Below, piece by piece: positions 10,163 through 50,279 of a stretch of 53,872 nt of DNA; position 1 is the stretch's first letter, and each line of letters opens with the position of its first letter. A program made the translations under genes and the position numbers. Below the pieces are notes generated by a model. It made no database searches. It was not told the origin of the DNA and was given only the letters and a program-made list of their open reading frames with translations. Source of the stretch: Patescibacteria group bacterium. GTDB taxonomy: Bacteria; Patescibacteriota; Minisyncoccia; Phycocordibacterales; JACZSL01. The stretch spans positions 1 through 53,872 of the forward strand of contig JACZSL010000003.1 in NCBI GenBank assembly GCA_022574205.1. Direction: 5' to 3'.

Positions 10163-12175
10163 CTAAACCCCTTCAAGTGCGCGTATTTCGTCACGGATAA
10201 TTGCTGCAGTTTCGAAATCAAGGATTTTAACAGCTTTCTCCATGGCGAGTTTCTTATCTTTAATAACTCCTTTTGGATTTTTTTTGTAGAGTTCTCTGTC
10301 AACTAAAAGTAATGTAGAAACAGTTTTTTCATGAGAGCTACGTAGTTGATCAGTGATGTCTTCAATTTTTTTTATGATGGTCTTTGGTGTAATTTTATGT
10401 TTCTTGTTGTGCGCTAGTTGTATTTCCCTGCGTCTATTTGTTTCAAGGGTGGCAACCCGCATGCTCTTTGTGACGTTGTCAGCGTATAAAACTACATGAC
10501 CTTCGACATTCCTTGCCGCTCGACCTATAATCTGAATAAGTGCTGTAATAGAGCGAAGAAAACCTTCCTTGTCTGCGTCTAAGATACCTATAAATGAAAC
10601 CTCTGGGAGATCCAACCCTTCGCGAAGCAAGTTCACACCAACAAGGCAATCAAATTTTCCTTTGCGAAAGTCAGTTAAAATCGTGATGCGCTCAATTGTC
10701 TTAATGTCGCTGTGTAGGTATTCTGCTTTGATATTTTTCTGTTTTAAAAAATCGGTAAGATCTTCTGCCATTTTTTTTGTTAGCGTTGTTGCCATTGTTC
10801 TATTTCCGCCTTTAATAACCTTCTCACTTTCCTTAATGAAGTCGGCTACCTGACCTTCATAAGTACCCTTGCTTACAATACCGCGCAAAATAATTTCTGG
10901 GTCAACGAGTCCTGTCGGACGAATTATTTGTTCCACAGTATTTTTGGTTCTCTCTAGCTCATATGGACCTGGGGTCGCCGACGTATAAATTACTTGATTG
11001 ACCCTCTCTTCAAATTCTTCAAAGTTTAAAGGTCTATTATCAACAGCGCTAGGAAGTCGAAATCCGTGTTCTACAAGATTATCTTTCCTCGAGCGATCAC
11101 CTGCATACATTCCACCAAGTTGTGGAACGGTGATGTGCGACTCATCAATTATCGTTAAAAAATCTGCTCTACCGCTTGCTGTGTGAGGAAAATACGAAAG
11201 CAGTGTGTATGGTGGTTCCCCGGGCCTGCGGCCATCAAAATGCCGTGAATAGTTCTCAATGCCGCTACAGTAACCAATCTCTCGAATTAGAGCTATATCG
11301 TGGCGTGTACGCCGTTTTATGCGTTCTGCTTCCAATATCTTGCCGGCTTTTTCAAATTTCTTGATTCTTTCCTTTAGTTCCATCTCGATGTCGGAAATTG
11401 CGCGCTTCCTCTCATCCTCTGGTGTAATAAAATGCTTTGCGGGATATAAGAAAAAGAGATCTATATTTTCGATAATTTTACGACTGATGGCATCAATTTT
11501 TTCTATTACAGAAATAACATTCTTTTCAAGTGTTAAGCGGTAGATTACTTTCTCGTTAGTTGGCATAATCTCTATAGTGTTTCCTACCGCGCGAAATGCC
11601 CCTGGGGAAAGGTCGGCGTTTGTGCGTTCAAAGTAAATGTAAATAAGTTTGCGCAAAAATTCGCCACGCGTGACTGTATCTCCTTTTGCGATCTTTATAT
11701 GAACTTTTTCATACTCCACAGGACTTCCCAACCCATAAATTGCGGAAACACTTGCTACGACAATTACGTCGCTTCGCGTTAAGAGTGCTTGTGTACTCGC
11801 GTGACGCAACCGATCAATCTCCTCGTTTATTTGTGCTTCTTTTTCTATATATGTATCACTGACAGGTAGATACGCTTCAGGTTGATAATAATCATAATAC
11901 GAGACAAAGTAATGAACAGAGTTACTAGGAAAAAAAGTCCTATATTCTTGAGCAAGTTGGGCAGCAAGCGTCTTGTTGTGTGCAATAACGAGTGTTGATT
12001 TTTGAACTTTTTCTATAACGTTTGCCACTGTGAACGTTTTTCCTGAACCAGTCACACCTAAAAGGACCTGGTGATTGAGGCCCTTTTTTATACCTGCCGA
12101 GAGAGATTGTATTGCTTTTGGTTGGTCTCCTGCCGGCTTAAATTCAGATTGTAGTTTAAACTTTTCGTTGTTCAT
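10163..12175 (-). CDS. uvrB: Excinuclease ABC subunit B
   Basis: GVTGSGKT, beta-hairpin YYDYYQPEAY, DESH, C-terminal UVR (DFETAAIIRD); start reassigned to MNNEK. Confidence 0.97.
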   Translation of the reverse strand: MNNEKFKLQSEFKPAGDQPKAIQSLSAGIKKGLNHQVLLGVTGSGKTFTVANVIEKVQKSTLVIAHNKTLAAQLAQEYRTFFPSNSVHYFVSYYDYYQPEAYLPVSDTYIEKEAQINEEIDRLRHASTQALLTRSDVIVVASVSAIYGLGSPVEYEKVHIKIAKGDTVTRGEFLRKLIYIYFERTNADLSPGAFRAVGNTIEIMPTNEKVIYRLTLEKNVISVIEKIDAISRKIIENIDLFFLYPAKHFITPEDERKRAISDIEMELKERIKKFEKAGKILEAERIKRRTRHDIALIREIGYCSGIENYSRHFDGRRPGEPPYTLLSYFPHTASGRADFLTIIDESHITVPQLGGMYAGDRSRKDNLVEHGFRLPSAVDNRPLNFEEFEERVNQVIYTSATPGPYELERTKNTVEQIIRPTGLVDPEIILRGIVSKGTYEGQVADFIKESEKVIKGGNRTMATTLTKKMAEDLTDFLKQKNIKAEYLHSDIKTIERITILTDFRKGKFDCLVGVNLLREGLDLPEVSFIGILDADKEGFLRSITALIQIIGRAARNVEGHVVLYADNVTKSMRVATLETNRRREIQLAHNKKHKITPKTIIKKIEDITDQLRSSHEKTVSTLLLVDRELYKKNPKGVIKDKKLAMEKAVKILDFETAAIIRDEIRALEGV

Positions 12176-12291
12176 CCCGTACGAAATAGGTCGCGGCAAA
12201 ACTATGTTGACCTATAATTAATTTTACTAAATCCGATATTGTGTATGTTACGAATTATATATACATATGCGACCCGCGATTTCGTACGGGA
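12175..12291 (-). mobile_element. Start-codon hairpin element at uvrB (no intact target duplication)
   Basis: Perfect 13-bp terminal IR tcccgtacgaaat/atttcgtacggga plus inner ggtcgc/gcgacc; terminal base is the A of the uvrB ATG. Confidence 0.65.
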
Positions 12292-12296
12292 ACAGC

Positions 12297-12944
12297 TTAG
12301 CTGAAATGATCTTTGATGGAATCCAGCAATTCGTCAGGACTATCAACAACATCAATCACGCTATCAGAAATCTCGGAGTCTTTAAAGTGTCGGCGTTCGT
12401 GAATACCCCACGTGACCCCTATTGATTGCATGCCGGCTTCTTCAGCTTCCATAACATCGCTAGTGGCGTCTGTTATGTAGATTGCGTTTGCTGGATCAAT
12501 GCCGAGTTCGCTCATGATATTTTCAGATTTCTCTGTTTTTGACTGCGCATCTTCTATTGTTAGAATTATTTTAAAGAATTTCTTGAGATTGTGTTTTTCT
12601 AATAACGGTATCGTTCTTTCCTTCCCAGAGTTTGTGTTAAGAGCGAGGATGTATTCGTCACCAAGCATCTTCAGCACTTCTTTCATGCCACTGTGTACTT
12701 GTGCTTTCTCTAGTTTCGTAATTGTGTATTTCTTTGTTCGTTCTTCTTTTTCTTCCTTGGTTTCATCTATGTGCAGATGCTCATATTCTTTTCTTGCTTC
12801 ATCTGGCGTTTTTTTATGCGTGACATTTTGATACATTTCCCATGTAAGCGATGGATGAACGCTTGCTGCGTTCGTAAAAGCCAGTTGCATTGAATCAATA
12901 ATAACCCCGTCAAAATCAAAAATGAGTAGTTTTTTATGCTCCAT
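12297..12944 (-). CDS. HAD-family hydrolase (phosphatase)
   Basis: Motif I FDFDGVI, motif IV-like YITDATSD; start reassigned to MEHKK. Confidence 0.9.
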   Translation of the reverse strand: MEHKKLLIFDFDGVIIDSMQLAFTNAASVHPSLTWEMYQNVTHKKTPDEARKEYEHLHIDETKEEKEERTKKYTITKLEKAQVHSGMKEVLKMLGDEYILALNTNSGKERTIPLLEKHNLKKFFKIILTIEDAQSKTEKSENIMSELGIDPANAIYITDATSDVMEAEEAGMQSIGVTWGIHERRHFKDSEISDSVIDVVDSPDELLDSIKDHFS

Positions 12945-13079
12945 CCCGATAGTTACCCGCCTGCCATCGCTACAAAGCACAGGGGGTTTGTATTATTGCT
13001 TATAAATAATGACTCAACCTTTACGTTCATAATTTCAATGATAATAGCTATAGCTTTGGCGGGCGGGTAACTATCGGGA
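12944..13079 (-). mobile_element. Start-codon hairpin element at the HAD gene
   Basis: About 23-bp terminal IR with one mismatch; TGGA duplicated on both sides (12940-12943, 13080-13083), each as ATGGA on the minus strand. Confidence 0.8.
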
Positions 13080-13134
13080 TCCATAGTTTGTTTAGTATAC
13101 ACCTTTAAATAATCTTATCTTAGACCTAACAGTT

Positions 13135-13164
13135 AAAACGCCAACTTTTTCAAGTTGGCGTTTT
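13135..13164. terminator. Intrinsic terminator downstream of the FKBP gene (likely bidirectional)
   Basis: aaaacgccaact-ttttca-agttggcgtttt. Confidence 0.75.
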
Positions 13165-13204
13165 ATTTTTTTCTTTTTTAGGCGTATTTTACGCACCGAA
13201 AATC

Positions 13205-13696
13205 CTACCTTACAATCTCAATCAGCATTACTTGAAATAGAAGCGTAGAGTTCGCCGGAATTGGCCCCACCACTACGTCACTATAAGCGAGATGAGGAGG
13301 TATAACGAGTGCGCGAACACCCCCCACTTTCATTCCAAGAAGTCCCTGATCCCAACCAGCAATAACTTCTCCTACTCCAAGTGTGAAGGTAAACGGCTTT
13401 CCATTGTCTAGTGAATTATCAAAAGTTGTTCCGTCCAGAAGTTGTCCAACGTAGTGAACTACTATACGCTCACCACCGACAAGCGTGTCCCCATCTCCTA
13501 AGACAACGTCCTCTGTAATCAAATCCTCAAGACTTGGTACATCGATGGCTTCCAAACCCAGAGCCATCGAAGAGTCTCTGCTTGAGAGCGAGTTTTCCGG
13601 AGAAGAAAAGAAAGATGGACTCAAAACAAAAAATATAAGCACAACAACGAGGCTTACGTACATACCAATTTTCTCGTTTCGGTTAAGTGATTTCAT
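13205..13696 (-). CDS. FKBP-type peptidyl-prolyl isomerase with N-terminal anchor
   Basis: VHYVGQLLDGTTFDNS, VIAGWDQG, IPANSTLLF. Confidence 0.92.
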   Translation of the reverse strand: MKSLNRNEKIGMYVSLVVVLIFFVLSPSFFSSPENSLSSRDSSMALGLEAIDVPSLEDLITEDVVLGDGDTLVGGERIVVHYVGQLLDGTTFDNSLDNGKPFTFTLGVGEVIAGWDQGLLGMKVGGVRALVIPPHLAYSDVVVGPIPANSTLLFQVMLIEIVR

Positions 13697-13822
13697 CCCG
13701 ATAGTGAGAAATTATGTTGTAATAAATTACGACTACTAATCAAACAAAGCGATCTCAACATGTTGATACATATACATACACCGCCCCCTGTGCCCCGCAC
13801 CACATAATTTTCTACTACGGGA
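13696..13822 (-). mobile_element. Start-codon hairpin element at the FKBP gene
   Basis: Imperfect ~23-bp terminal IR; TGAA duplication (13692-13695, 13823-13826); outer ATG lies 5 nt after the upstream gene's stop. Confidence 0.75.
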
Positions 13823-13831
13823 TTCATGAGT

Positions 13832-14458
13832 TTATAATAGCGTTAATTGTTTTACTACGCCATAGTATTTAATATGAGTGTTTGTAGGATATATCGAGGC
13901 TTCTTTAAGTCGTCTTCTGAGGATTTTATAATTTTTAAATGTGAGTGAAATAAGTTCCCAAAACTTTTGAGAATGATTCAGTTCTCTAAGGTGGCAAAGT
14001 TCGTGAACGATAAGGTAGTTTTGAAGATCCTCTGGGAGATGGATTAGCCTATAATTAAAATTTAGATTCTTCTTTTCTGTACAACTTCCCCACTGCGCCT
14101 TATGATTTTTCACGTATATTTTGTTGTAAGAAAAACGATAGTTGGTATTAAAGTAGGACACTTTTTGCTCTACAAGCTCCAGTACTTCTTGTTTTCTAGT
14201 TTTATACTCTTTCTCATATGTGTCTCGTTGTTCATCATGTGATCGTAACTTGTCGACGTTAATATACTTTTGAATCCACGAGCGTTTCTCTCGTATAAAA
14301 CGTTCTGCGCCCAGGTGGGTTCCACGCCGTGGAATTGTCACTATAAGCCTACCGTCGTCTAGAAGTGTGAGACTTATCCGCTTTGAGCGCGGATGTCTTT
14401 TCAAAACATATGGAATAGTTATTCCGTCTAAACGTATTTCTTTTTTTACTTGCAACAT
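13832..14458 (-). CDS. M48/YgjP (DUF45)-like metal-dependent hydrolase
   Basis: WGSC...NFNYRL...YLIVHELCHLRELNHS (HExxH). Confidence 0.85.
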   Translation of the reverse strand: MLQVKKEIRLDGITIPYVLKRHPRSKRISLTLLDDGRLIVTIPRRGTHLGAERFIREKRSWIQKYINVDKLRSHDEQRDTYEKEYKTRKQEVLELVEQKVSYFNTNYRFSYNKIYVKNHKAQWGSCTEKKNLNFNYRLIHLPEDLQNYLIVHELCHLRELNHSQKFWELISLTFKNYKILRRRLKEASIYPTNTHIKYYGVVKQLTLL

Positions 14459-16927: not shown

Positions 16928-18007
16928 TTATATCCCCTCCTCTTTGAGCTCTTCGACGAGCATTTTCGCTTTCTTCGAGAGTTTTTGCGGGAGTTTGATC
17001 TTTAGCTTTATAAATAGATCCCCACGTCCCCCACCGCGTTTTGGAACACCCTTACCGCGAAGGCGGAGCATTTCTCCGGGTGAAGCACCTTCCGGAACTT
17101 TTACTTGGATTTCGCCGTCTAGTGTCGGTAGTGTGTATTCTTTACCTAATAGCGCGTCTGTGAGTTTTATATTAAGTGTTGTTGTAATGTTGGTACCTTC
17201 GCGCTTAAACCGAGGATCGTCCTCTACGTGGAGCTTTACATACAGATCACCTGGCACACCGCCTGAGAGTGCCTCTCCAGCACCGCTAAGACGAATCATT
17301 TCACCATTATGAATATTTTCTGGAACTGTAATACTAATCTCAACCTCCTGCCTCTTAATACCGATGCCGTGGCAGTCATTACATTTATCGTGCGGGACTT
17401 CCCCCTTTCCATGACATGAATCACACACGCGCATACTCGTGAAAGTCCCAAGAAGTGATCTTTTTGTCTCGTGAATATTTCCCTTGCCGTTGCATGTAGG
17501 GCAAGTGTCCATGCTTGAACCAGCTTTTGCACCCGTTCCTTTACACTTCTTGCATTCGGACACTTTCGTTATGAGTACTTTTCTCTTTGTACCAAAAACT
17601 GCTTCAGTAAACGGAAGCTCGAGATCAATAGAAATGTCACGACCTCGCTTTACACGTCGTGCACCGCCTCCACCATTGAAGAATTCAGTAAAAATGTCTC
17701 CGAGATCGAAATTCTGAAAATCTTGTGCGTTGAATCCAGAGCCTCCAAAATCAAACCCTTCAAAGCCGGCTCCTGGTGCGCCTGGCGCACCAGCACCATT
17801 AAACACCCTTCCGTAGGAATCGTATTCAGCGCGTCTTTTATCATCTGATAAGATGTTGTACGCTTCGCTTATTTCCTTAAACTTCGCGTCGTCGGTGTTT
17901 CCTTTATCTGGGTGGTGTTTGTGCGCAAGCTTGCGAAACGCTTTTTTTATATCGTCTTTAGTGGCATTACGTTCAATGCCGAGGATTGTGTAATAGTCTT
18001 TATTCAT
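16928..18007 (-). CDS. dnaJ: Chaperone DnaJ
   Basis: HPD J-domain, G/F region, four CxxCxGxG repeats. Confidence 0.97.
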   Translation of the reverse strand: MNKDYYTILGIERNATKDDIKKAFRKLAHKHHPDKGNTDDAKFKEISEAYNILSDDKRRAEYDSYGRVFNGAGAPGAPGAGFEGFDFGGSGFNAQDFQNFDLGDIFTEFFNGGGGARRVKRGRDISIDLELPFTEAVFGTKRKVLITKVSECKKCKGTGAKAGSSMDTCPTCNGKGNIHETKRSLLGTFTSMRVCDSCHGKGEVPHDKCNDCHGIGIKRQEVEISITVPENIHNGEMIRLSGAGEALSGGVPGDLYVKLHVEDDPRFKREGTNITTTLNIKLTDALLGKEYTLPTLDGEIQVKVPEGASPGEMLRLRGKGVPKRGGGRGDLFIKLKIKLPQKLSKKAKMLVEELKEEGI

Positions 18008-18159
18008 CCCGTTAGAGAATTATCCTTTCAATATATAAGTGTAGTAATATATTAATATTGTCATCTCTCCCTCTCCACATCATCCAATCTATCCGTAATT
18101 CCTAACGGGACTTGTCCCGTTTAAAAAATTAGCCGTCTCTTATACATCCCCGTGGCGGA
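18007..18159 (-). mobile_element. Composite start-codon hairpin element at dnaJ
   Basis: Inner arm pair tcccgttag..ctaacggga (18007-18110), extra CCCG/CGGG arms at 18106-18119 and 18147-18159; TGAA duplication (18003-18006, 18160-18163). Confidence 0.65.
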
Positions 18160-18243
18160 ATTCATTGTGGTGTGGGCTTCTCAAGATTTGACTCTATTGT
18201 ATCACGGTGGGTAGAGGCTAGTAGAAAGAAAGGTGGATATTAG

Positions 18244-21407: not shown

Positions 21408-21457
21408 GTCTTAGATCTTGTTAATTATTCTGAGCGTAGCGAGAAATAATGTTATTA

Positions 21458-21586
21458 AATCTTAAACCCGCCGCAGTTTTTGAACATACACCAAAATACT
21501 GTGCTAGCATAGCACATGTGTTTTTCTCCCATAATGTATCTTTTTTCCTCATGGTGTTTGTTCAAAAATTTAGGCGGGTAAATTCG
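21458..21586 (-). repeat. 129-bp structured intergenic repeat, copy A (rplM-rpsI)
   Basis: Homologous to 23995-24123; long imperfect stem acccgcc..tttttgaaca / tgttcaaaaa..ggcgggt; adjacent 11-bp hairpin at 21592-21624. Confidence 0.85.
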
Positions 21587-21636
21587 CTTTTCTGTATTCT
21601 ACTTCGATTCCTCGTAGAATACAGGATCTCATTTAG

Positions 21637-23959: not shown

Positions 23960-23994
23960 GTTAGATTTTATTAGCGAGCAAGGCGAGATTAGAA

Positions 23995-24123
23995 AATCTT
24001 AAACCCGACAAAGTTTTTGAACACACACCAAAATGCTGTGTTAGCGTAACATGAGTGTTTTGTTCTTTCAATATGTTGTTCTCTGTCATAATGTTTGTTC
24101 AAAAATTTAGGCGGGTAAATTCG
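23995..24123 (-). repeat. 129-bp structured intergenic repeat, copy B (rpsK-rpsD)
   Basis: Same length as copy A, last 32 bp identical; adjacent 12-bp hairpin at 24129-24160. Confidence 0.85.
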
Positions 24124-24168
24124 TACTTCTAGATTTTGTTTTGTTCCTAACAAAATCTAGGTGTTTAT

Positions 24169-25052: not shown

Positions 25053-25166
25053 TTACCCCTGCCTCTGTTTGTGGCGTGGATTCGTACAAATAACATAAAC
25101 GCGGCCTTTCCTCCTCCTAGTTTTACAATTTGGACAAATCCTTTTGACTGATGCTTTTACCTTCAT
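25053..25166 (-). CDS. rpmJ: 50S ribosomal protein L36, zinc-binding form (not in the ORF track)
   Basis: [37 protein letters not shown]. Confidence 0.97.
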
Positions 25167-25278
25167 CCCGATAGTAATAGGACACGGACATTAATTATCC
25201 TTGCCATAAATTTAAACTTTTGTAATTGTTCGACTTTTTCTTCATATATCGTGTTAGTGTCCGTGATTACTATCGGGA
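25166..25278 (-). mobile_element. Start-codon hairpin element at rpmJ
   Basis: Terminal IR tcccgatagtaat/attactatcggga plus inner cacggacaytaa arms; TGAA duplication (25162-25165, 25279-25282); an extra decayed arm CTAATAGG-ATG precedes it. Confidence 0.8.
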
Positions 25279-25420
25279 TTCATCCTATTAGAGAGTTTTC
25301 TCTCTTGAAAAATGTACCAACTCTAATAAAAATACTCCACTCCCTCATTCCCTTTTTATAAACAAAAAAAACTACGAACACGCCTTTGGCGTAAATAACA
25401 AGTAGTTATAGTCTTTTCCC

Positions 25421-25639: not shown

Positions 25640-25771
25640 TCACATTTGGCAAGTTTGCATATATTACCAGAAATGAGTGCGTAGGTCAATATATTTTGCT
25701 CTTTCCCGCCATTTTTTGCGATTATATATAACATGAGCAGTATCGGCTCAGTTATAGCTCTATTTTGCGTT

Positions 25772-26035
25772 TTAATTGGTGGATATTTCTGCCAGTTTAC
25801 TGTGCGTTTTAGGTCCAAACCGACCATGTCCGGTCGTACCCGGTGTTCCGGAAGATACAATACCGTATTTTGCCTGAAACTTTTGTACAGCACGCTCGGT
25901 GAGTGAACCAAAATAATTTGTCTCCAGTCCCGGTGAGCCGGCTCCGCTTTCTGCAACTTGCGTGTCGGGGTCACTGTTCAAGAGCTGTTGGAGACGTTTT
26001 ATATCAAGATTTGACTGTTTGCAAAATATTGACAG
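25772..26035 (-). pseudogene. Isolated peptidoglycan-binding-domain fragment
   Basis: DIKRLQQLLNSDPDT...YFGSLTERAVQKFQAKYGI...GRFGPKT; similarity extends upstream of the only (TTG) start to an in-frame TAG at 26036-26038. Confidence 0.55.
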
Positions 26036-26039
26036 CTAG

Positions 26040-27344
26040 CTACTCTCCTTCAAGTTCAAGAATCTGTTTTATGCTGATTTCTTCTGCGTCATCAGGAAAA
26101 CTCTTGCGCCAGAATGGCCGAACTATCACCTCTGCGCGATCGATGCCAGGATACCCTGAAAGTATAGTATAGATTGCTTCTTTTGCCCTACCTGCGAGGT
26201 CTGCCTTTAGCTGCTCTTCGTCATACAGCCAAACAATTTCGACATTACCTGTAAGTGAGAATAAAAGCGGCGACTCTTCCCACGGATTCACACCTTCATC
26301 ACTCTGCCTAGGAATGAGTGTTAGTGCTGATAGATTCAAAATGTCTACAGGGCTGTCGTCGTAATTTCCGAGTGTATTTTCCGCAAGGTAGCTAGCAAGT
26401 TCGGTACTTGTGAATAAAACGCCGTGAAGTATTCCTTTTTCACTAACAACTGCATCAGTTCCTGACTCCACTATAGGTAATGTTTCAAATTCTACAAAGA
26501 GTGAGTTGTCGAAGAAAACAAAACCTTCGGGTGTTTGTTTTGCAATGTCCGAGCGTAATGTTGTCTCAATCTCCTCGCGAAGAACCTGCCTAGTCGATGC
26601 AAGCAAACTGTCTTCAACAACCAACTGCTCTCCTATAAATCCTCCTGTCATTAACGTTACACTTCGCGCGTAGAAGTTTTCAAATTGCGGCGCACCTTTA
26701 AAACCCGGTATGACAAAGTCTGTGAGTCCCCTGTTATAACTTTCTCCTGCCTCATCTGCGTAGACTGTAACCTCAGCGCTCCCTGGAGTTGTGACACCTC
26801 CCTCTTTCGTCTGGCCTGGTACTACAACAGACTTATCAATACGATAAATTTGTCCGTCTGGTGTTTCAAAACGAGTGTTGCGGATAAGTCGCTGACCGAC
26901 AGTGTTGTAATCGTTGTATATGATTATTTTTCCGCTAGCTTTTTGCTCAACTTGTTCTCTCCCTGTTGCTTGAACTGTATCGGTCTTTGTGACACTCAAC
27001 TCAACTGTCTCATATTTAAGGCCTTCACCTGTCTCTTTAGATGGTATTGCAGAGAATGTGCCATCAACAACTAACCGTTCGTGTTTTGGGTAGATTGTCA
27101 CTTGTGCGCCTGAAAGCACCATAGATATTGCGAGAAAGCCTAGAGCAAGGAATAGGATAACAGCGACACTAACATAAAGAATGGATGGCCTTTTCCCTCG
27201 GCGAGGCATGGGCTCGCGTGGTGGTGCTGGTCTAAACCTGTCTCCTTCTTCGTAAGGTGGACGCTTGATGTTAGAATCCACAGGCGGACGTTTTGGTCTT
27301 CGTCCTCCTGGAATTACTATGTCCCGAATTGTGTTTCTTGCCAT
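26040..27344 (-). CDS. Membrane-anchored protein with a baseplate J/gp47-like domain
   Basis: One TM then KASGKIIIYN, NTRFETPDG, VTVYADEAGESYN, GGF motifs (recalled pattern). Confidence 0.55.
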   Translation of the reverse strand: MARNTIRDIVIPGGRRPKRPPVDSNIKRPPYEEGDRFRPAPPREPMPRRGKRPSILYVSVAVILFLALGFLAISMVLSGAQVTIYPKHERLVVDGTFSAIPSKETGEGLKYETVELSVTKTDTVQATGREQVEQKASGKIIIYNDYNTVGQRLIRNTRFETPDGQIYRIDKSVVVPGQTKEGGVTTPGSAEVTVYADEAGESYNRGLTDFVIPGFKGAPQFENFYARSVTLMTGGFIGEQLVVEDSLLASTRQVLREEIETTLRSDIAKQTPEGFVFFDNSLFVEFETLPIVESGTDAVVSEKGILHGVLFTSTELASYLAENTLGNYDDSPVDILNLSALTLIPRQSDEGVNPWEESPLLFSLTGNVEIVWLYDEEQLKADLAGRAKEAIYTILSGYPGIDRAEVIVRPFWRKSFPDDAEEISIKQILELEGE

Positions 27345-27400: not shown

Positions 27401-28633
27401 CTATATGCCCAATTTACGCTTATAAAAAAGGATATCAAGAGCAAGAAATGGGTCAAGTGCCCATTCTCCCCCCAGCCATGTAATGTAGTTAGCAAGATAT
27501 GTACCATCGAGAACTGTTACTTCAAAATGTTGCATATCTGGCATAGTCTCTTGTTCTGATTGTGGTTCGATAATTTTTTTAAACCAACCGGAAAGGTCTT
27601 TATCTGCCAATAGTAAAAGCGTGTTAGGAAGGGGTCGTGTTTGGCGAATTTTATTCAGTGCTAAAGAGAAGGAACTAGTCCACTGTGCTCTAACGGATTC
27701 CATAATAGCAATAAAATCGCTTTCCTGTTTTTGGCTCATTTTCCCGCATAAATATAAATGCAGTAGTGAACGGGTTTCTTCGATAGGTACTTTAAGAACT
27801 TTAGAAATCTCACGGAAAACTAAATGTCGCCCTCCTGTAAACGAGGCCAAATGAACTAGCGTGCCACCATCAACAAGACTTATGTCACTCATCTCGGCAC
27901 TAATGTCCAAGAGTACAAAATCGTCGCTTTGCTCAAAAACATCCCTAGCCGCAAGAAATGATGCAAGTGGAAACGCATGAAAATCCACACTATCGTCAGG
28001 AAGTAATTCTCCTACAATTTCAGATGTTTGGTCGTGAATGTCACGTGAGATGGCGCTAAGTCCTAGATCAATTTTCAGCCTCTTTGTTGGTTTGTCGTAA
28101 GGGTTGCTCGTTTGGTAACCATTTAATGTTGTTCGAATTATCTCACAATCCACTGAAGCCAAGTCTCGATTCCTCGATTTAATAGGGGTGGTTTTGGTAT
28201 CTTCCCCAATAAATTTGGAAATCGCCTCTTTCACAAATCTTTCGGATATTTGCCTCGTCATAGTAAACGGTTCCTCCTTATTTATAGACAACCTTCTTAT
28301 CTCAACTGTAGCCCACGGACTTGAGAATGTGGTTAATACGTGATCTACGAGTTTACCCTTCAGGAAAATGCCTTCATTTTTCAATAGCTGTGTGGTAACA
28401 GATTGCACTTCGAACATAGTGTTCAGTAGTGTTGCAAGCATGGCTTTTGTTAACTTATCTAAACGTGGGGCTGTTTCATGGAAACTAATCGCGTTCCTCG
28501 TGCTGTAAAGAATCTTTGGAAGCTTTTTTGGCGAAAGTATGGCAAGAGCCGCTCCAACACTCCCGCTTCCAATGTCAAAAACAATGAGAGAACGTGTACC
28601 TGTATTCGTCTTTGAAGAAGCTTTGTTTTTCAT
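27401..28633 (-). CDS. Actin-like (FtsA/PilM-like) protein
   Basis: VFDIGSGSV and LLDISAEMSDI phosphate-loop-like motifs, GGRHL; start reassigned to MKNKA. Confidence 0.55.
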   Translation of the reverse strand: MKNKASSKTNTGTRSLIVFDIGSGSVGAALAILSPKKLPKILYSTRNAISFHETAPRLDKLTKAMLATLLNTMFEVQSVTTQLLKNEGIFLKGKLVDHVLTTFSSPWATVEIRRLSINKEEPFTMTRQISERFVKEAISKFIGEDTKTTPIKSRNRDLASVDCEIIRTTLNGYQTSNPYDKPTKRLKIDLGLSAISRDIHDQTSEIVGELLPDDSVDFHAFPLASFLAARDVFEQSDDFVLLDISAEMSDISLVDGGTLVHLASFTGGRHLVFREISKVLKVPIEETRSLLHLYLCGKMSQKQESDFIAIMESVRAQWTSSFSLALNKIRQTRPLPNTLLLLADKDLSGWFKKIIEPQSEQETMPDMQHFEVTVLDGTYLANYITWLGGEWALDPFLALDILFYKRKLGI

Positions 28634-28835
28634 CCCGTTAGAGATAGGAAACGCCAAATAACGAAGTTAAAATAGTGCTTCCTATTTTATTATTTTCTAA
28701 AAATCTTTTCATCGACCTAGGTGTTGTGCCTATTCCGGCGTTTCCGTAAGTTATTTTTTATCTTTATATACATTTACTTATTTTACTATTTTGTTAGTAA
28801 AGGTCATACATAACTATTAACTATCTCTAACGGGA
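28633..28835 (-). mobile_element. 203-bp start-codon hairpin element (twin 1)
   Basis: Perfect 15-bp TIR tcccgttagagatag; TGAA duplication; near-identical to 34198-34403. Confidence 0.9.
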
Positions 28836-30958: not shown

Positions 30959-31031
30959 ATAATAGTACTAGTGTAACATCACTTTAAGGCAAACATAACG
31001 CTCACATGGTACTAATTCATATCAAATCCTA

Positions 31032-31066
31032 CCACTTTGATCGAGATCGGATCTCGATCAAAGTGG
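31032..31066. repeat. Perfect 17-bp inverted repeat containing four GATC
   Basis: ccactttgatcgagatc-g-gatctcgatcaaagtgg. Confidence 0.85.
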
Positions 31067-31107
31067 AAAATTTTCCTTATACTTTCCCCATATACCAATA
31101 CTTATAC

Positions 31108-32732: not shown

Positions 32733-32794
32733 TCAATTAGAAAATTATCCTTTTAATATATAACTAACAATGTGTCCATTAATCTTACAGCAGA

Positions 32795-33340: not shown

Positions 33341-34198
33341 CTATTCTATACGATGATCGCCGGTACACAAGGCTTGACTTTCTGCAATAACCGTGGCTAT
33401 TTTCGCAGGCGCAACACCAGCTTTTTGTAGCGCGGCGGCGTCTTCGCCCAAGTCACGGCATAGCACAATTTTCTGTTCAAGGAGATTCTTCTTTTCCCTA
33501 TCTGACAGCGTTGAAAGACACGTTATAGGATAGATGCGAGTCTGTGTAATGAGGTCGTATAGGCCACGCTTGTTGGGATAGAACCAACTTAGAAGTTTTA
33601 AATCAACGCACTTAGCATACGAAATGGAACTTTTTGTAAATTTAGTATTGGTTATCAACCAAGCTTCACGGACCATGTCCCCTTCTTCCAAGTTTTCTTG
33701 TTTGTGAATATCGAGAAAACGAGCATGCACATAGAGCGCAACTTTTAAGTCCGTTTTAATACCTAGATTGTTGTGAAATTTAATCTCGGCGGAAATTCTT
33801 GTATTGTCCTTCTCCGCAACAAGATCTACTTCGTGGGTTGCACACTTTCCCTGAATCACTTGTTGGATACGCGTGCTATAACCTAATGCGTTAAAAACTT
33901 CTGCAACGTAATTTTCAAACGGGAATCCACTTGGACCAAGAGCGAAAACTCCGCGACGAATTGAGTACCGTGCAGCGACAGTTTTCTCCTTACTTTTTCT
34001 CAGTAGCGAAAAAGCATGTCTGTAGATCTCGCTCGTAGTCATGCCATCCTCAATTTCAGCATTAACGTGATTAACAATTTCCTTGATCAATTTTTGAGAT
34101 GTACCGGTTTTTTTGAGGGACCGCTCAAGTTTACTCTGTAAGAATAATTCTTTCTCGCCATTGGCTTTTATGACATAAATTTCTCGATATTCCTTCAT
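33341..34198 (-). CDS. ATP-cone + Mrr-like restriction endonuclease domain protein
   Basis: VIKANGEKELFLQSKLERSL (ATP-cone), GFPFENYVAE, HEVDLVA...AEIKF; start reassigned to MKEYR. Confidence 0.8.
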   Translation of the reverse strand: MKEYREIYVIKANGEKELFLQSKLERSLKKTGTSQKLIKEIVNHVNAEIEDGMTTSEIYRHAFSLLRKSKEKTVAARYSIRRGVFALGPSGFPFENYVAEVFNALGYSTRIQQVIQGKCATHEVDLVAEKDNTRISAEIKFHNNLGIKTDLKVALYVHARFLDIHKQENLEEGDMVREAWLITNTKFTKSSISYAKCVDLKLLSWFYPNKRGLYDLITQTRIYPITCLSTLSDREKKNLLEQKIVLCRDLGEDAAALQKAGVAPAKIATVIAESQALCTGDHRIE

Positions 34199-34403
34199 CC
34201 CGTTAGAGATAGGAAACGCCAAATAACGAAGTTGAAATGGTGCTTCCTGGTTTATTATTTTCTAAAAATCTTGTCATCGACCTAAAAATGCTGTGCTTAT
34301 TCTGGCGTTTCCGTAGGTTATTTTTTATCTTTGTATACATTTACCCATTCTACTTATTTTGCTCGTTGAGGTCATACATAACTATTAACTATCTCTAACG
34401 GGA
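34198..34403 (-). mobile_element. 206-bp start-codon hairpin element (twin 2)
   Basis: Same TIR and TGAA duplication as 28633-28835; first 38 and last 40 nt (flanks included) identical. Confidence 0.9.
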
Positions 34404-50083: not shown

Positions 50084-50160
50084 GTGAACCTTCCCCAAAT
50101 TAGGTTCAAGTGCACCAGCACACATTCCCGGGGTTGCGTAAGCTCCCCGGGTTTTTTTTA
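50084..50160 (+). ncRNA. Candidate small RNA, unit 2
   Basis: TACAAT (50072-50077), GTGAACC..GGTTCA stem, CACATTC linker, cccgggg/ccccggg stem + T8. Confidence 0.6.
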
Positions 50161-50192
50161 TTTTGATGATCTCCCGTAGTCTCCCTCGTATT

Positions 50193-50243
50193 TATCCCGT
50201 ATGAAATAGGACGTAAACGTCCGTAATTTCGTTCGGGGCTCAT
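50193..50243 (-). mobile_element. Short decayed relative of the uvrB-type hairpin element
   Basis: tcccgtatgaaatagg..atttcgttcgggg resembles tcccgtacgaaatagg..atttcgtacggga; flanks ATGAG / ATAAA. Confidence 0.5.
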
Positions 50244-50279
50244 ACTCTATACTTATACTTTAGGTGCTACAATACACTC

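Follow-up and report, generated by a model that had tools for sequence, protein, structure and literature searches.

A 53,872-nt stretch of a Patescibacteria group bacterium (contig JACZSL010000003.1 of assembly GCA_022574205.1, positions 1 to 53,872; hereafter the window) carries seven main copies of a hairpin-forming element, each of them at the start codon of a gene. We propose, with a probability of roughly 0.7, that these hairpins are miniatures and remnants of a mobile element of the Patescibacteria that has a nuclease-encoding form, inserts at start codons, and hands ribosomes over to the host gene by stop/start coupling. An initial annotation of the same DNA had described the arm of the element as a built-in translational-coupling cassette, and had suggested that the elements either act as a regulatory switch, making translation of the downstream gene depend on an upstream open reading frame (ORF), or are bypassed or excised.

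The seven copies comprise five miniatures and two longer twins, all read here on the minus strand, which is the strand of their host genes. In this direction the general layout is an outer ATGAA, an arm beginning TCCCG(T/A)TAG, a variable interior, a closing arm ending CTA(A/T)CGGGA, and then TGAA, with the second ATG being the start of the host gene. For example, the 127-nt miniature at the gene for an FKBP protein (13696-13822) spans from the T of TCCCG to the A of CGGGA, and its final base is the A of the gene's ATG. The 136-nt miniature at the HAD gene (12944-13079) belongs to a GATAG arm subtype and has TGGA on either flank; it contains a 30-nt inverted repeat (I3, 90% complementary) and has a predicted fold of -59.7 kcal/mol (z -6.6). 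The uvrB miniature (12175-12291, 117 nt) retains TGAA on its inner flank, but its outer ATG is gone, the flank there being GCTGT. At dnaJ, the element is a composite (18007-18160) of a 104-nt copy (18007-18110), a 4-nt CAAG junction, and a 46-nt degenerate copy (18115-18160) that ends in the outer ATGAA; immediately downstream of 18070-18075, a position to which the RNA data return below, lie a GGAGAGGGAGAG stretch and a 14-codon ORF. The miniature at rpmJ, the gene for ribosomal protein L36, is 113 nt long and TGAA-flanked (25166-25278), and is adjoined upstream by an older degenerate copy with the arm CTCTAATAGGATGAA (25283-25340, outer end approximate), which is evidently a tandem insertion into the duplicated ATGAA. 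Finally, twin 1 (28633-28835, 203 nt; repeats D2, D4, and D7) lies at the start of a 410-aa gene without a Pfam match, and twin 2 (34198-34403, 206 nt) at the start of an ATP-cone/Mrr-like gene (33341-34198), whose product combines an ATP-cone domain, an Mrr-type restriction-endonuclease fold, and an AF1548-like C-terminus.

The gene-side arm, CTAACGGGATGA, places a TAA in one frame 4 nt ahead of the ATG and a TGA over the ATG in a second frame, and reads S-N-G-M in the third. These frames are just as the initial annotation had described them, and the ORFs it had listed are exact to the codon. At the FKBP gene, 44 codons (13693-13827) run from an outer ATG (13827-13825), within the upstream copy of the duplicated TGAA, to a TGA (13695-13693) that overlaps the start ATG (13696-13694) as ATGA; the protein encoded downstream matches Pfam FKBP_C. 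At the HAD gene, 43 codons (12953-13084) run from an outer ATG (13084-13082) to a TAA (12955-12953) 8 nt ahead of the start ATG (12944-12942). The rpmJ element holds an internal 14-codon ORF (from 25207) that also ends in ATGA, while a 24-codon ORF in each twin ends CTC-TAA-CGGG-ATG, the same frame being open for 45 codons in twin 2; the TAA-CGGG-ATG ending is shared by dnaJ. Apart from such short, unconserved ORFs, the five miniatures (104-136 nt) encode nothing. The claim that the downstream ATG sits at the base of the terminal helix is borne out as well: in predicted RNA folds and in a 70-sequence alignment this helix has 14 bp, and its two final pairs include the A and the U of the AUG that starts the gene. 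When residues are numbered from the inner ATG, the Pfam domains of the HAD, DnaJ, L36, and ATP-cone proteins start at residues 1-7 (the HAD_2 profile match at residue 7), and thus the inner ATG is the true gene start. Longest-ORF calls, by comparison, begin inside the element at TTG or GTG codons for uvrB (10163-12199), HAD (12297-12980), and the genes after the twins (27401-28657 and 33341-34222), with N-termini such as 'MAFPISNGM...'.

That these hairpins are mobile DNA, and not fixed regulatory RNA, is clear from a comparison of the window with contigs of public marine-sediment metagenomes. A DNA contig from run X3 skips 13692-13822, which is 131 nt or the 127-nt FKBP copy plus 4, and 5 letters fit both sides of the join, making this a precise empty site. 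Likewise, 25162-25278 (117 nt, the 113-nt rpmJ copy plus 4) is missing from contigs of DNA runs X1, X3, and X5 that share 99.6-99.8% identity with the window; the same copy is also skipped in X26. Precise absence in near-identical strains leaves a single TGAA. These contigs lack exactly the element and 4 nt, so the gain or loss of copies takes place in DNA and involves a duplication of 4 bp (TGAA). The uvrB copy is absent from related, more divergent strains, where 11 to 24 different nucleotides stand instead; twin 1 is absent from more divergent strains too, and twin 2 from a divergent strain. In DNA runs, the HAD copy has 4-6 times the depth of its flanks and joins several different flanks, and is therefore multicopy; the twins likewise show a several-fold excess of depth and many different flanks. 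The idea of a regulatory switch evolved by the host is not supported by this result, as the arms belong to mobile DNA that duplicates the start codon on insertion.

The same element is found well beyond the window. In the window itself, a 12-mer allowed up to two mismatches is present 11 times where 3.4 would be expected, a count attained in 0 of 100 shuffles, and the paired-arm pattern is present twice where 0 would be expected. Foreign copies alone were used to build a covariance model, which, when applied to the window, scores the rpmJ element at 77.9 bits (E 1e-12), HAD at 41.9, uvrB at 33.3, dnaJ at 30.6, and FKBP at 21.7 (E 0.05; minus strand); the scores of the twins (18.6 and 15.0 bits, E 0.2 and 1) are not significant because the twins are longer than the model. 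Among species-representative genomes, at least 119 stretches match the paired-arm pattern, and viral contigs contain no match to it. All informatively named carriers are Patescibacteria, mostly of Parcubacteria lineages, plus Kerfeldbacteria and Kazan, with the exception of two contigs labelled 'uncultured Gammaproteobacteria' (L024 and L028), which are probably mislabelled Patescibacteria bins, the alternative being a rare transfer. The 119 copies fall into 111 sequence clusters and are thus nearly independent of one another, and their interiors are unrelated. We conclude that the family consists of mobile DNA elements specific to the Patescibacteria, the ultra-small bacteria of the Candidate Phyla Radiation (CPR).

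Across this family the ends are 13-bp inverted sequences, TCCCGTTAGAG...CTCTAACGGGA, with a 4-bp duplication. A typical copy is 115-135 nt long, the perfect inverted end has a median of 13 nt (range 9-18 over 119 copies), and the mean helix energy is -41 kcal/mol. Where the arm had not been selected by the search pattern, matching flanks on both sides are TGAA, TGGA, TGAG, TTAA, or TCAA, and the base preceding TGRR is A in all but one of 17 cases, the exception being G. In ~97% of copies the inner ATG opens a long, recognisable gene, and the recurrent hosts include MurG, DnaJ, L36, L31, TopA, SSB, and RNase H. The preference is equally visible in the window, where 6 of the ~10-11 genes that start with ATGAA and 2 of the 4 that start with ATGGA are occupied, against none of ~130 other ATGAA sites. 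Orientation is also constrained: the two ends are asymmetric, one of them having a bulge and a local hairpin, and in 114 of 121 copies this is the end turned towards the gene. In agreement with this bias, the local hairpin energy is -7.6 kcal/mol beside the inner arm and -2.8 beside the outer arm, and the strand-specific scores of the covariance model give the same orientation. Tandem and nested copies that share one ATGAA are common, as at rpmJ and dnaJ in the window; arrays like that at rpmJ occur at loci L005, L033, L044, and L050.

Three foreign loci carry longer copies (277-285 nt) with the same ends, and each is filled from end to end by a single ORF whose product is a GIY-YIG catalytic domain (PF01541, E 1e-16; 61 bits, with the cut-off at 22.6). 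A search with an alignment of these three retrieved at least 490 confirmed loci from metagenomes, and a protein search retrieved at least 4000 clusters, mostly of 94-95 aa, the organisms named for them being mostly Patescibacteria; the clusters bear names such as 'GIY-YIG nuclease family protein', 'excinuclease ABC subunit C', and 'putative endonuclease'. Among solved structures, UPF0213 BH0048 and SLX1, the latter a structure-specific nuclease, come nearest. We kept 80 nuclease loci, of which 47 have recognisable ends. The end-to-end spacing is 274-280 nt in 46 of these 47, and ATGAA/TGAA flanks are present in 25. The full-length element, which is rare, measures 274-280 bp and contains only its inverted ends and the ORF for a nuclease of 86-95 aa.

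The nuclease gene and the host start are interlocked. In 22 of the 47 loci the nuclease ORF begins with the outer ATG, and its terminal TGA overlaps the inner ATG; for 40 of 71 nuclease ORFs, the stop is a TGA that overlaps with the ATG of a host ORF at least 60 aa long. The start codon of the nuclease therefore lies in the upstream copy of the target and its stop codon in the downstream copy, the element proper having neither, while the arm supplies codons 2-5 of its M-N-P-V-R start. In a second variant, the outer ORF stops just past the arm (MNPVRD-stop) and the nuclease restarts 6-10 nt further on. This is the layout of the window twins, in which a profile of full-length nucleases matches twin 1 (E 8e-5) and, in twin 2, matches at profile positions 10-41 and 34-94 in different reading frames. 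Because the profile matches fall in two frames, the twins are frameshifted, partly deleted nuclease genes.

The miniatures, too, can be related to the full-length gene. Their gene-side local hairpin corresponds to a long-range inverted repeat of the nuclease gene, in which ACGGAAACG (DLRKR codons) pairs with CGTTTCCT (KRFL codons), and we infer that miniatures arose by a deletion of ~155 nt between these repeats. One foreign short copy, L047, encodes the N-terminal 25 residues of the nuclease (E 1e-8). Positions 12-14 of the ends differ among copies and yet stay complementary within each, in many combinations, with A-C mismatches as frequent as G-U. This pattern suggests a constraint on folded DNA, rather than on RNA or on one sequence bound by a protein, and such a constraint would fit a structure-specific nuclease of the SLX1 type.

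If ribosomes are handed over at the junction between element and gene, then ORFs that end at the stops of the arm should be kept open. We counted every ATG-initiated ORF that ends at the arm's TAA or TGA in the 119 miniatures, and compared the counts with several controls. ORFs of at least 10 codons are present in 80 copies, against 31.5 in mononucleotide shuffles, 34.1 in dinucleotide shuffles, and 35 when the interior is reverse-complemented. For a minimum of 20 codons, 72 copies qualify, against 18.1 and 20.9 in the two kinds of shuffle, 23 after reverse-complementing, and 23.5 (maximum 36) when only the centre is shuffled; for 35 codons the figures are 37 against 10.3, 12.9, 20, and 13.9. 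ORFs that start at the outer ATG and reach the arm stops are also in excess, at 37 of 122 copies compared with 10 ± 2.9 in shuffles. Consistent with these counts, the central region has on average 1.01 (TAA) and 1.36 stops in the two frames that stop at the arm, but 1.68 in the frame of the gene (TAA versus gene frame, p = 1.4e-4). Such clustering of upstream stops at start codons beyond that of shuffled interiors is what the initial annotation had looked to as a check.

One source of open frames would be recent descent from the nuclease gene, and we reject this explanation. The 5' interiors of miniatures align to the full-length coding sequence at the level of shuffles (13.2 versus 12.8), copies with open and closed frames score the same, and the favoured frame ends at TAA, compared with TGA in the ancestral gene. 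Recent inheritance thus has no power to account for the open ORFs, and we read the excess as selection for translation through the element that ends beside the start codon. The full-length copies make a strong case for coupling, as their gene is conserved, and hence translated, and ends in ATGA on the start of the host gene. Translation of the host gene may in turn depend on the upstream ORF. The proposal of a built-in coupling cassette is therefore upheld as far as the build of the arm is concerned (40/71 nuclease ORFs and 72/119 miniatures), but the arms turn out to be the inverted ends of a mobile element.

Based upon these results, we can sketch how the element may work. Insertion would occur at A|TGAA with duplication of TGAA, and the final A of the element would rebuild ATGAA on the gene side, so that the host gene keeps an intact start codon because the last base of the element is A. 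The original ATG of the host would stay in the upstream copy and become the start codon of the nuclease, while the first three bases of the downstream copy would become its stop (GGA-TGA), overlapping the ATG of the host gene. With both start and stop drawn from the duplicated target, the element would borrow the initiation site of its host and return the ribosomes by termination-reinitiation at ATGA or TAA-CGGG-ATG. The derivatives in the window would have lost the nuclease, five by deletion between internal inverted repeats to give miniatures of 104-136 bp and two by frameshift to give the twins. In the miniatures, pairing of the ends would form a helix of 13-14 bp that buries the start codon, and a short ORF, from the outer or an internal ATG to the arm stops, would be kept open by selection so that its ribosomes open the helix and reinitiate on the gene. 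The nuclease itself would mobilise the element, cutting A|TGAA with a 4-nt stagger and acting at the base of the extruded hairpin. Of these points, the anatomy of the copies, their mobility as DNA, their position at start codons, the nuclease ORF with its overlap of the host start, and the surplus of ORFs ending at the arm are observed; the role of the nuclease in mobilisation, the chemistry of cutting, and the dependence of host translation on the upstream ORF are inferred. We put at about even the chances that these elements form an unrecognised class, a 'minimal transposon' of ~277 bp in which a structure-specific GIY-YIG gene between inverted ends homes to start codons throughout the radiation, using the translational relay as a stealth strategy.

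Several observations weigh against this reading. In some 40% of miniatures, no ORF of 20 codons or more ends at the arm, and among the seven window copies only HAD and FKBP have an ORF from the outer ATG that reaches the arm, the uvrB copy having no outer ATG at all. Shine-Dalgarno pairing before the outer ATG shows no enrichment (-1.4 kcal/mol, with random positions at -1.8), and the inner ATG is preceded by none. Roughly 40% of the full-length copies lie away from gene starts, a profile of the full-length proteins finds no intact nuclease copy in the window, no GIY-YIG enzyme is known to work as a transposase that generates target duplications, and a GIY-YIG transposase is absent from the papers searched. 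The remaining points come from RNA. This evidence consists of contigs, whose depth is uneven and which break at repeats, and two of the 'RNA' libraries were made by whole-genome amplification; as a measure of expression it is of only partial use, and we treat it as a source of leads. At dnaJ, RNA-seq contigs that match with 0 mismatches run out at 18070-18075 (minus strand), a point within the element ~65 nt before the ATG; depth is 36-68 over dnaJ, ~1-2 beyond 18070-18075, and 3-7 over the upstream dnaK. With such an end the dnaJ mRNA would lack the outer arm and the outer ATG, which suggests an internal 5' end made by a promoter or by processing. At the HAD gene, depth is 70-110 from the 3' end of the FKBP gene across the HAD element (12943-13084) but 0.7-8 over the HAD coding region, a fall of about ten-fold, and the HAD hairpin may therefore act mainly as an RNA 3' end.

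The dnaJ data raise the possibility that the miniatures are inert, and that host genes escape them through mRNAs that start inside the element, by an internal promoter or processing, with the start codon left unburied; the ORFs would then matter little, or would serve to prevent Rho-type polarity. The dnaJ leader cut at 18075 does fold weakly (-10 kcal/mol), and the gene after twin 1 has an RNA depth of 85-103 while alaS upstream of it has 0-6. We nevertheless regard this explanation as unlikely. Searches inside the elements for sigma-70-like promoters and terminators found nothing beyond chance, and the aligned copies share no conserved -10-like box. Where a contig stops says little about the 5' end of an mRNA, and the contigs at the twins are interrupted in shared repeat sequence. 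Inert miniatures would also leave the three-fold excess of ORFs and the asymmetry between frames unexplained, and transcripts of full-length copies must include the outer ATG, because the nuclease ORF starts there. The initial annotation had named an internal promoter at the inner ATG as one observation that would count against coupling; the dnaJ contigs do end within the element, but at ~65 nt upstream of that ATG rather than at it. The HAD data would instead fit hairpins that have been co-opted by the host as cis-regulatory RNA, as terminators or 3'-end stabilisers of the upstream gene, insulators between genes, or helices that repress translation, such as RNA thermometers on the chaperone genes dnaJ and FKBP. 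Fold-back contigs, with opposite-strand joints and 19 shared letters, occur in RNA libraries and are unlisted for DNA runs, as self-priming at a 3' hairpin would produce, and the helices are strong with the start codon paired. This seems to us quite unlikely, however, for copies come and go between near-identical strains, the host genes (L36, MurG, TopA, SSB, and RNase H) are as unrelated as the interiors, and the equal frequency of A-C and G-U mismatches points to a constraint at the level of DNA. Contig depths are moreover patchy enough to fall from 70 to 0 within the FKBP gene itself.

Two further explanations bear on how the element moves and how it is tolerated. Inverted ends and a short target duplication are a hallmark of DDE transposition, and the ends could belong to a DDE-type transposon encoded elsewhere (for example, one like piggyBac or IS1380, with CCC...GGG ends and a 4-bp TNAA duplication), with the GIY-YIG gene as a passenger or a secondary invader of the loop. 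One copy is flanked by TTAA, and the lack of a GIY-YIG transposase in the papers searched favours this reading. We hold it to be very unlikely, as the element of 274-280 bp holds the nuclease ORF alone, with its ends serving as the first and last codons, and the covariation of positions 12-14 between arms fits recognition of a folded structure better than a sequence-specific transposase. No longer element with the same ends is present in 0.9 Mb of loci or in the window, and unpaired arms and arm pairs 400-3500 nt apart in the 0.9 Mb yielded no candidate for a DDE partner; reading the window ORF list by eye turned up nothing transposase-like, and the Pfam scan covered nine window proteins. To intron-like removal of the RNA, or ribosome hopping from the outer to the inner ATG, we give almost no credence, although the identical ATGAA on either side of the hairpin does resemble the matched take-off and landing codons of T4 gene 60 and the mitochondrial byps. 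At gathering thresholds, Rfam, its intron families included, matches only one tRNA in the window, and a permissive search of 12000-14000 gave only sub-threshold chance matches. All the skips are in DNA runs apart from a lone one in an 'RNA?' run, which is a whole-genome-amplified library from a strain 2.4% divergent, and true RNA-seq contigs keep the arm joined to the gene. In programmed bypassing, a stop follows the take-off codon, the landing codon matches it, about 27-55 nt lie between the two, and the nascent peptide provides a signal. Here, the would-be take-off codon is followed by AAT and not by a stop, the gap is 113-206 nt, no nascent peptide is possible because take-off would be at codon 1, and the same sequence is a translated protein gene in relatives. 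The suggestion that the elements are bypassed or excised thus has nothing in its favour as far as the present data go. Two other kinds of element were considered and dropped. A GTTAGAG core prompted a comparison with attC-like sites, but the copies lie outside cassette arrays and the core fits the consensus only loosely. IS200/IS605-like insertion was considered because of the orientation bias; the palindromic elements derived from that family lack inverted ends and duplications, have separate subterminal hairpins, and insert 3' of a fixed tetra- or pentanucleotide, whereas the present copies have true inverted ends, and their flanks match even for the variant targets TGAG, TGGA, TCAA, and TTAA.

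The mobile element that we propose, with its nuclease and its translational relay, shares features with several known systems. Free-standing GIY-YIG homing endonuclease genes are exemplified by the seg genes of phage T4 and by I-TevI. Full-length relatives of the window copies share the catalytic domain of GIY-YIG homing genes and of UPF0213/YhbQ/SLX1-like proteins, and are selfish, tiny, multicopy, and prone to decay as homing endonuclease genes are. However, their protein is a bare catalytic domain of 86-95 aa without a DNA-binding extension, and the element has inverted ends, a 4-bp duplication, many unrelated targets, and start and stop codons derived from the target. An intact GIY-YIG domain, as in homing genes, is absent from the window copies and present in relatives elsewhere, and copying into a cognate allele without inverted ends or duplication is contradicted by the anatomy of the copies. 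[quoted passage not shown] Both are ~100-150 bp long, with inverted ends, a target duplication, many decayed copies, and mRNA hairpins that possibly affect their neighbours, and the window copies show the MITE features of inverted ends, a 4-bp duplication with empty sites, small size without functional coding, and many copies. They differ from MITEs of the Correia type in that the target is ATGAA at gene starts and not TA, the orientation is fixed in 94%, the arms carry stops in two frames, and the putative autonomous partner encodes a GIY-YIG and not a DDE enzyme.

In translationally coupled gene pairs, stop and start meet as ATGA or TAANNNNATG, and ribosomes on the upstream gene unmask the downstream start, as at the junctions of the trp operon and between the coat and replicase genes of MS2. 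The element junctions are similar in having an upstream stop 0-7 nt from a downstream ATG that is paired in a helix, but in the present case it was the insertion of a mobile element that made the junction, and the upstream ORF is either part of that element or derived from it. Other insertions tolerated within genes are read through in frame (Rickettsia palindromic elements), removed (inteins and introns), or bypassed (byps and T4 gene 60). Like these, the element is selfish, sits in essential genes, and is rendered harmless by a built-in trick, with a hairpin between direct repeats; unlike them, it would be neither translated into the host protein, nor spliced, nor hopped, but would sit at codon 1, duplicate the start, and relay the ribosomes. 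We found no prior description of these elements in the papers searched. What comes nearest is a report that the rRNA genes of CPR bacteria carry non-intron insertions that encode GIY-YIG proteins, as well as many short (<200 bp), uncharacterised insertions without ORFs that are mostly at the tops or bases of stem-loops (PMC11270868). These share organisms and nuclease superfamily with the present elements, but no inverted ends, duplication, or link to start codons are described for them; they may be the same family landing in rRNA genes.

Some further sequences in the window resemble the element more weakly, or lie apart from it. A degenerate inner arm, 84% like that of dnaJ (32733-32763, minus strand; repeat D15), precedes an MgtC-family gene with an ATGGA start (Pfam MgtC) and is a weak assignment. 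A short degenerate remnant (50195-50257, minus strand) in a divergent intergenic region, away from gene starts, is the weakest of all, with a covariance-model score of just 11.6 bits (E 4.4) over 50091-50243. At dnaJ, one element end meets another at the CAAG (18111-18114), and the flank ...CTAACGGGA-CAAG(T)... recurs in place of the expected TGAA at L048, L082, and L098, the last of which has one element inside the hairpin loop of another; the CAAG flank could be a secondary target or a junction of ends. Upstream of both rpsI and rpsD, at a distance of ~45 nt, lies a copy of an unrelated foldback repeat (~125-147 nt, the two copies 77% alike, ends TTTACCCGCC...GGCGGGTTTAA; 21452-21598 and 23989-24135, minus strand), which in either place follows closely on a terminator-like hairpin and has no Rfam match; the HAD element contains a similar ACCCGCC/GGCGGGT subterminally. 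Strain-level indels at 25690-26097 (408 nt) and 30960-31103 (144 nt) appear as skips in several DNA runs and fall outside the element family, the 144-nt indel containing, a short way before a small gene, a perfect hairpin of 17 bp (31032-31066). The exact FKBP protein is absent from the contig index that was searched.

If the proposed mechanism is correct, the element represents a new route by which selfish DNA can settle in essential genes such as those for L36, DnaJ, UvrB, MurG, TopA, and SSB, taking codon 1 for itself and passing the ribosomes on. Such a translational relay would be a third stealth strategy, beside splicing (introns and inteins) and bypassing. It might also involve a new transposition chemistry, with a nuclease of ~90 residues, a 5-bp target, and a hairpin as substrate, a system that should lend itself readily to work in vitro. 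GIY-YIG domains occur in homing endonucleases, UvrC, SLX1, and Penelope retroelements, but none is known from bacterial elements with inverted ends and target duplications. For annotation, thousands of CPR proteins of 94 aa named "GIY-YIG family" or "excinuclease ABC subunit C" would be parts of such elements, and many CPR start codons are at risk of being called at the wrong ATG, with N-termini likely mis-called by automatic methods. As copies differ between strains that are 99.8% identical, they should be useful as strain markers. Miniatures without a nuclease ORF would occupy a large share of the genes that start with ATGAA, more than half of them in the window, and may shape translation initiation and operon structure in these reduced genomes. 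With so many of these genes occupied, the family amounts to a natural experiment, with many replicates, on translation initiation in organisms poor in Shine-Dalgarno sequences.

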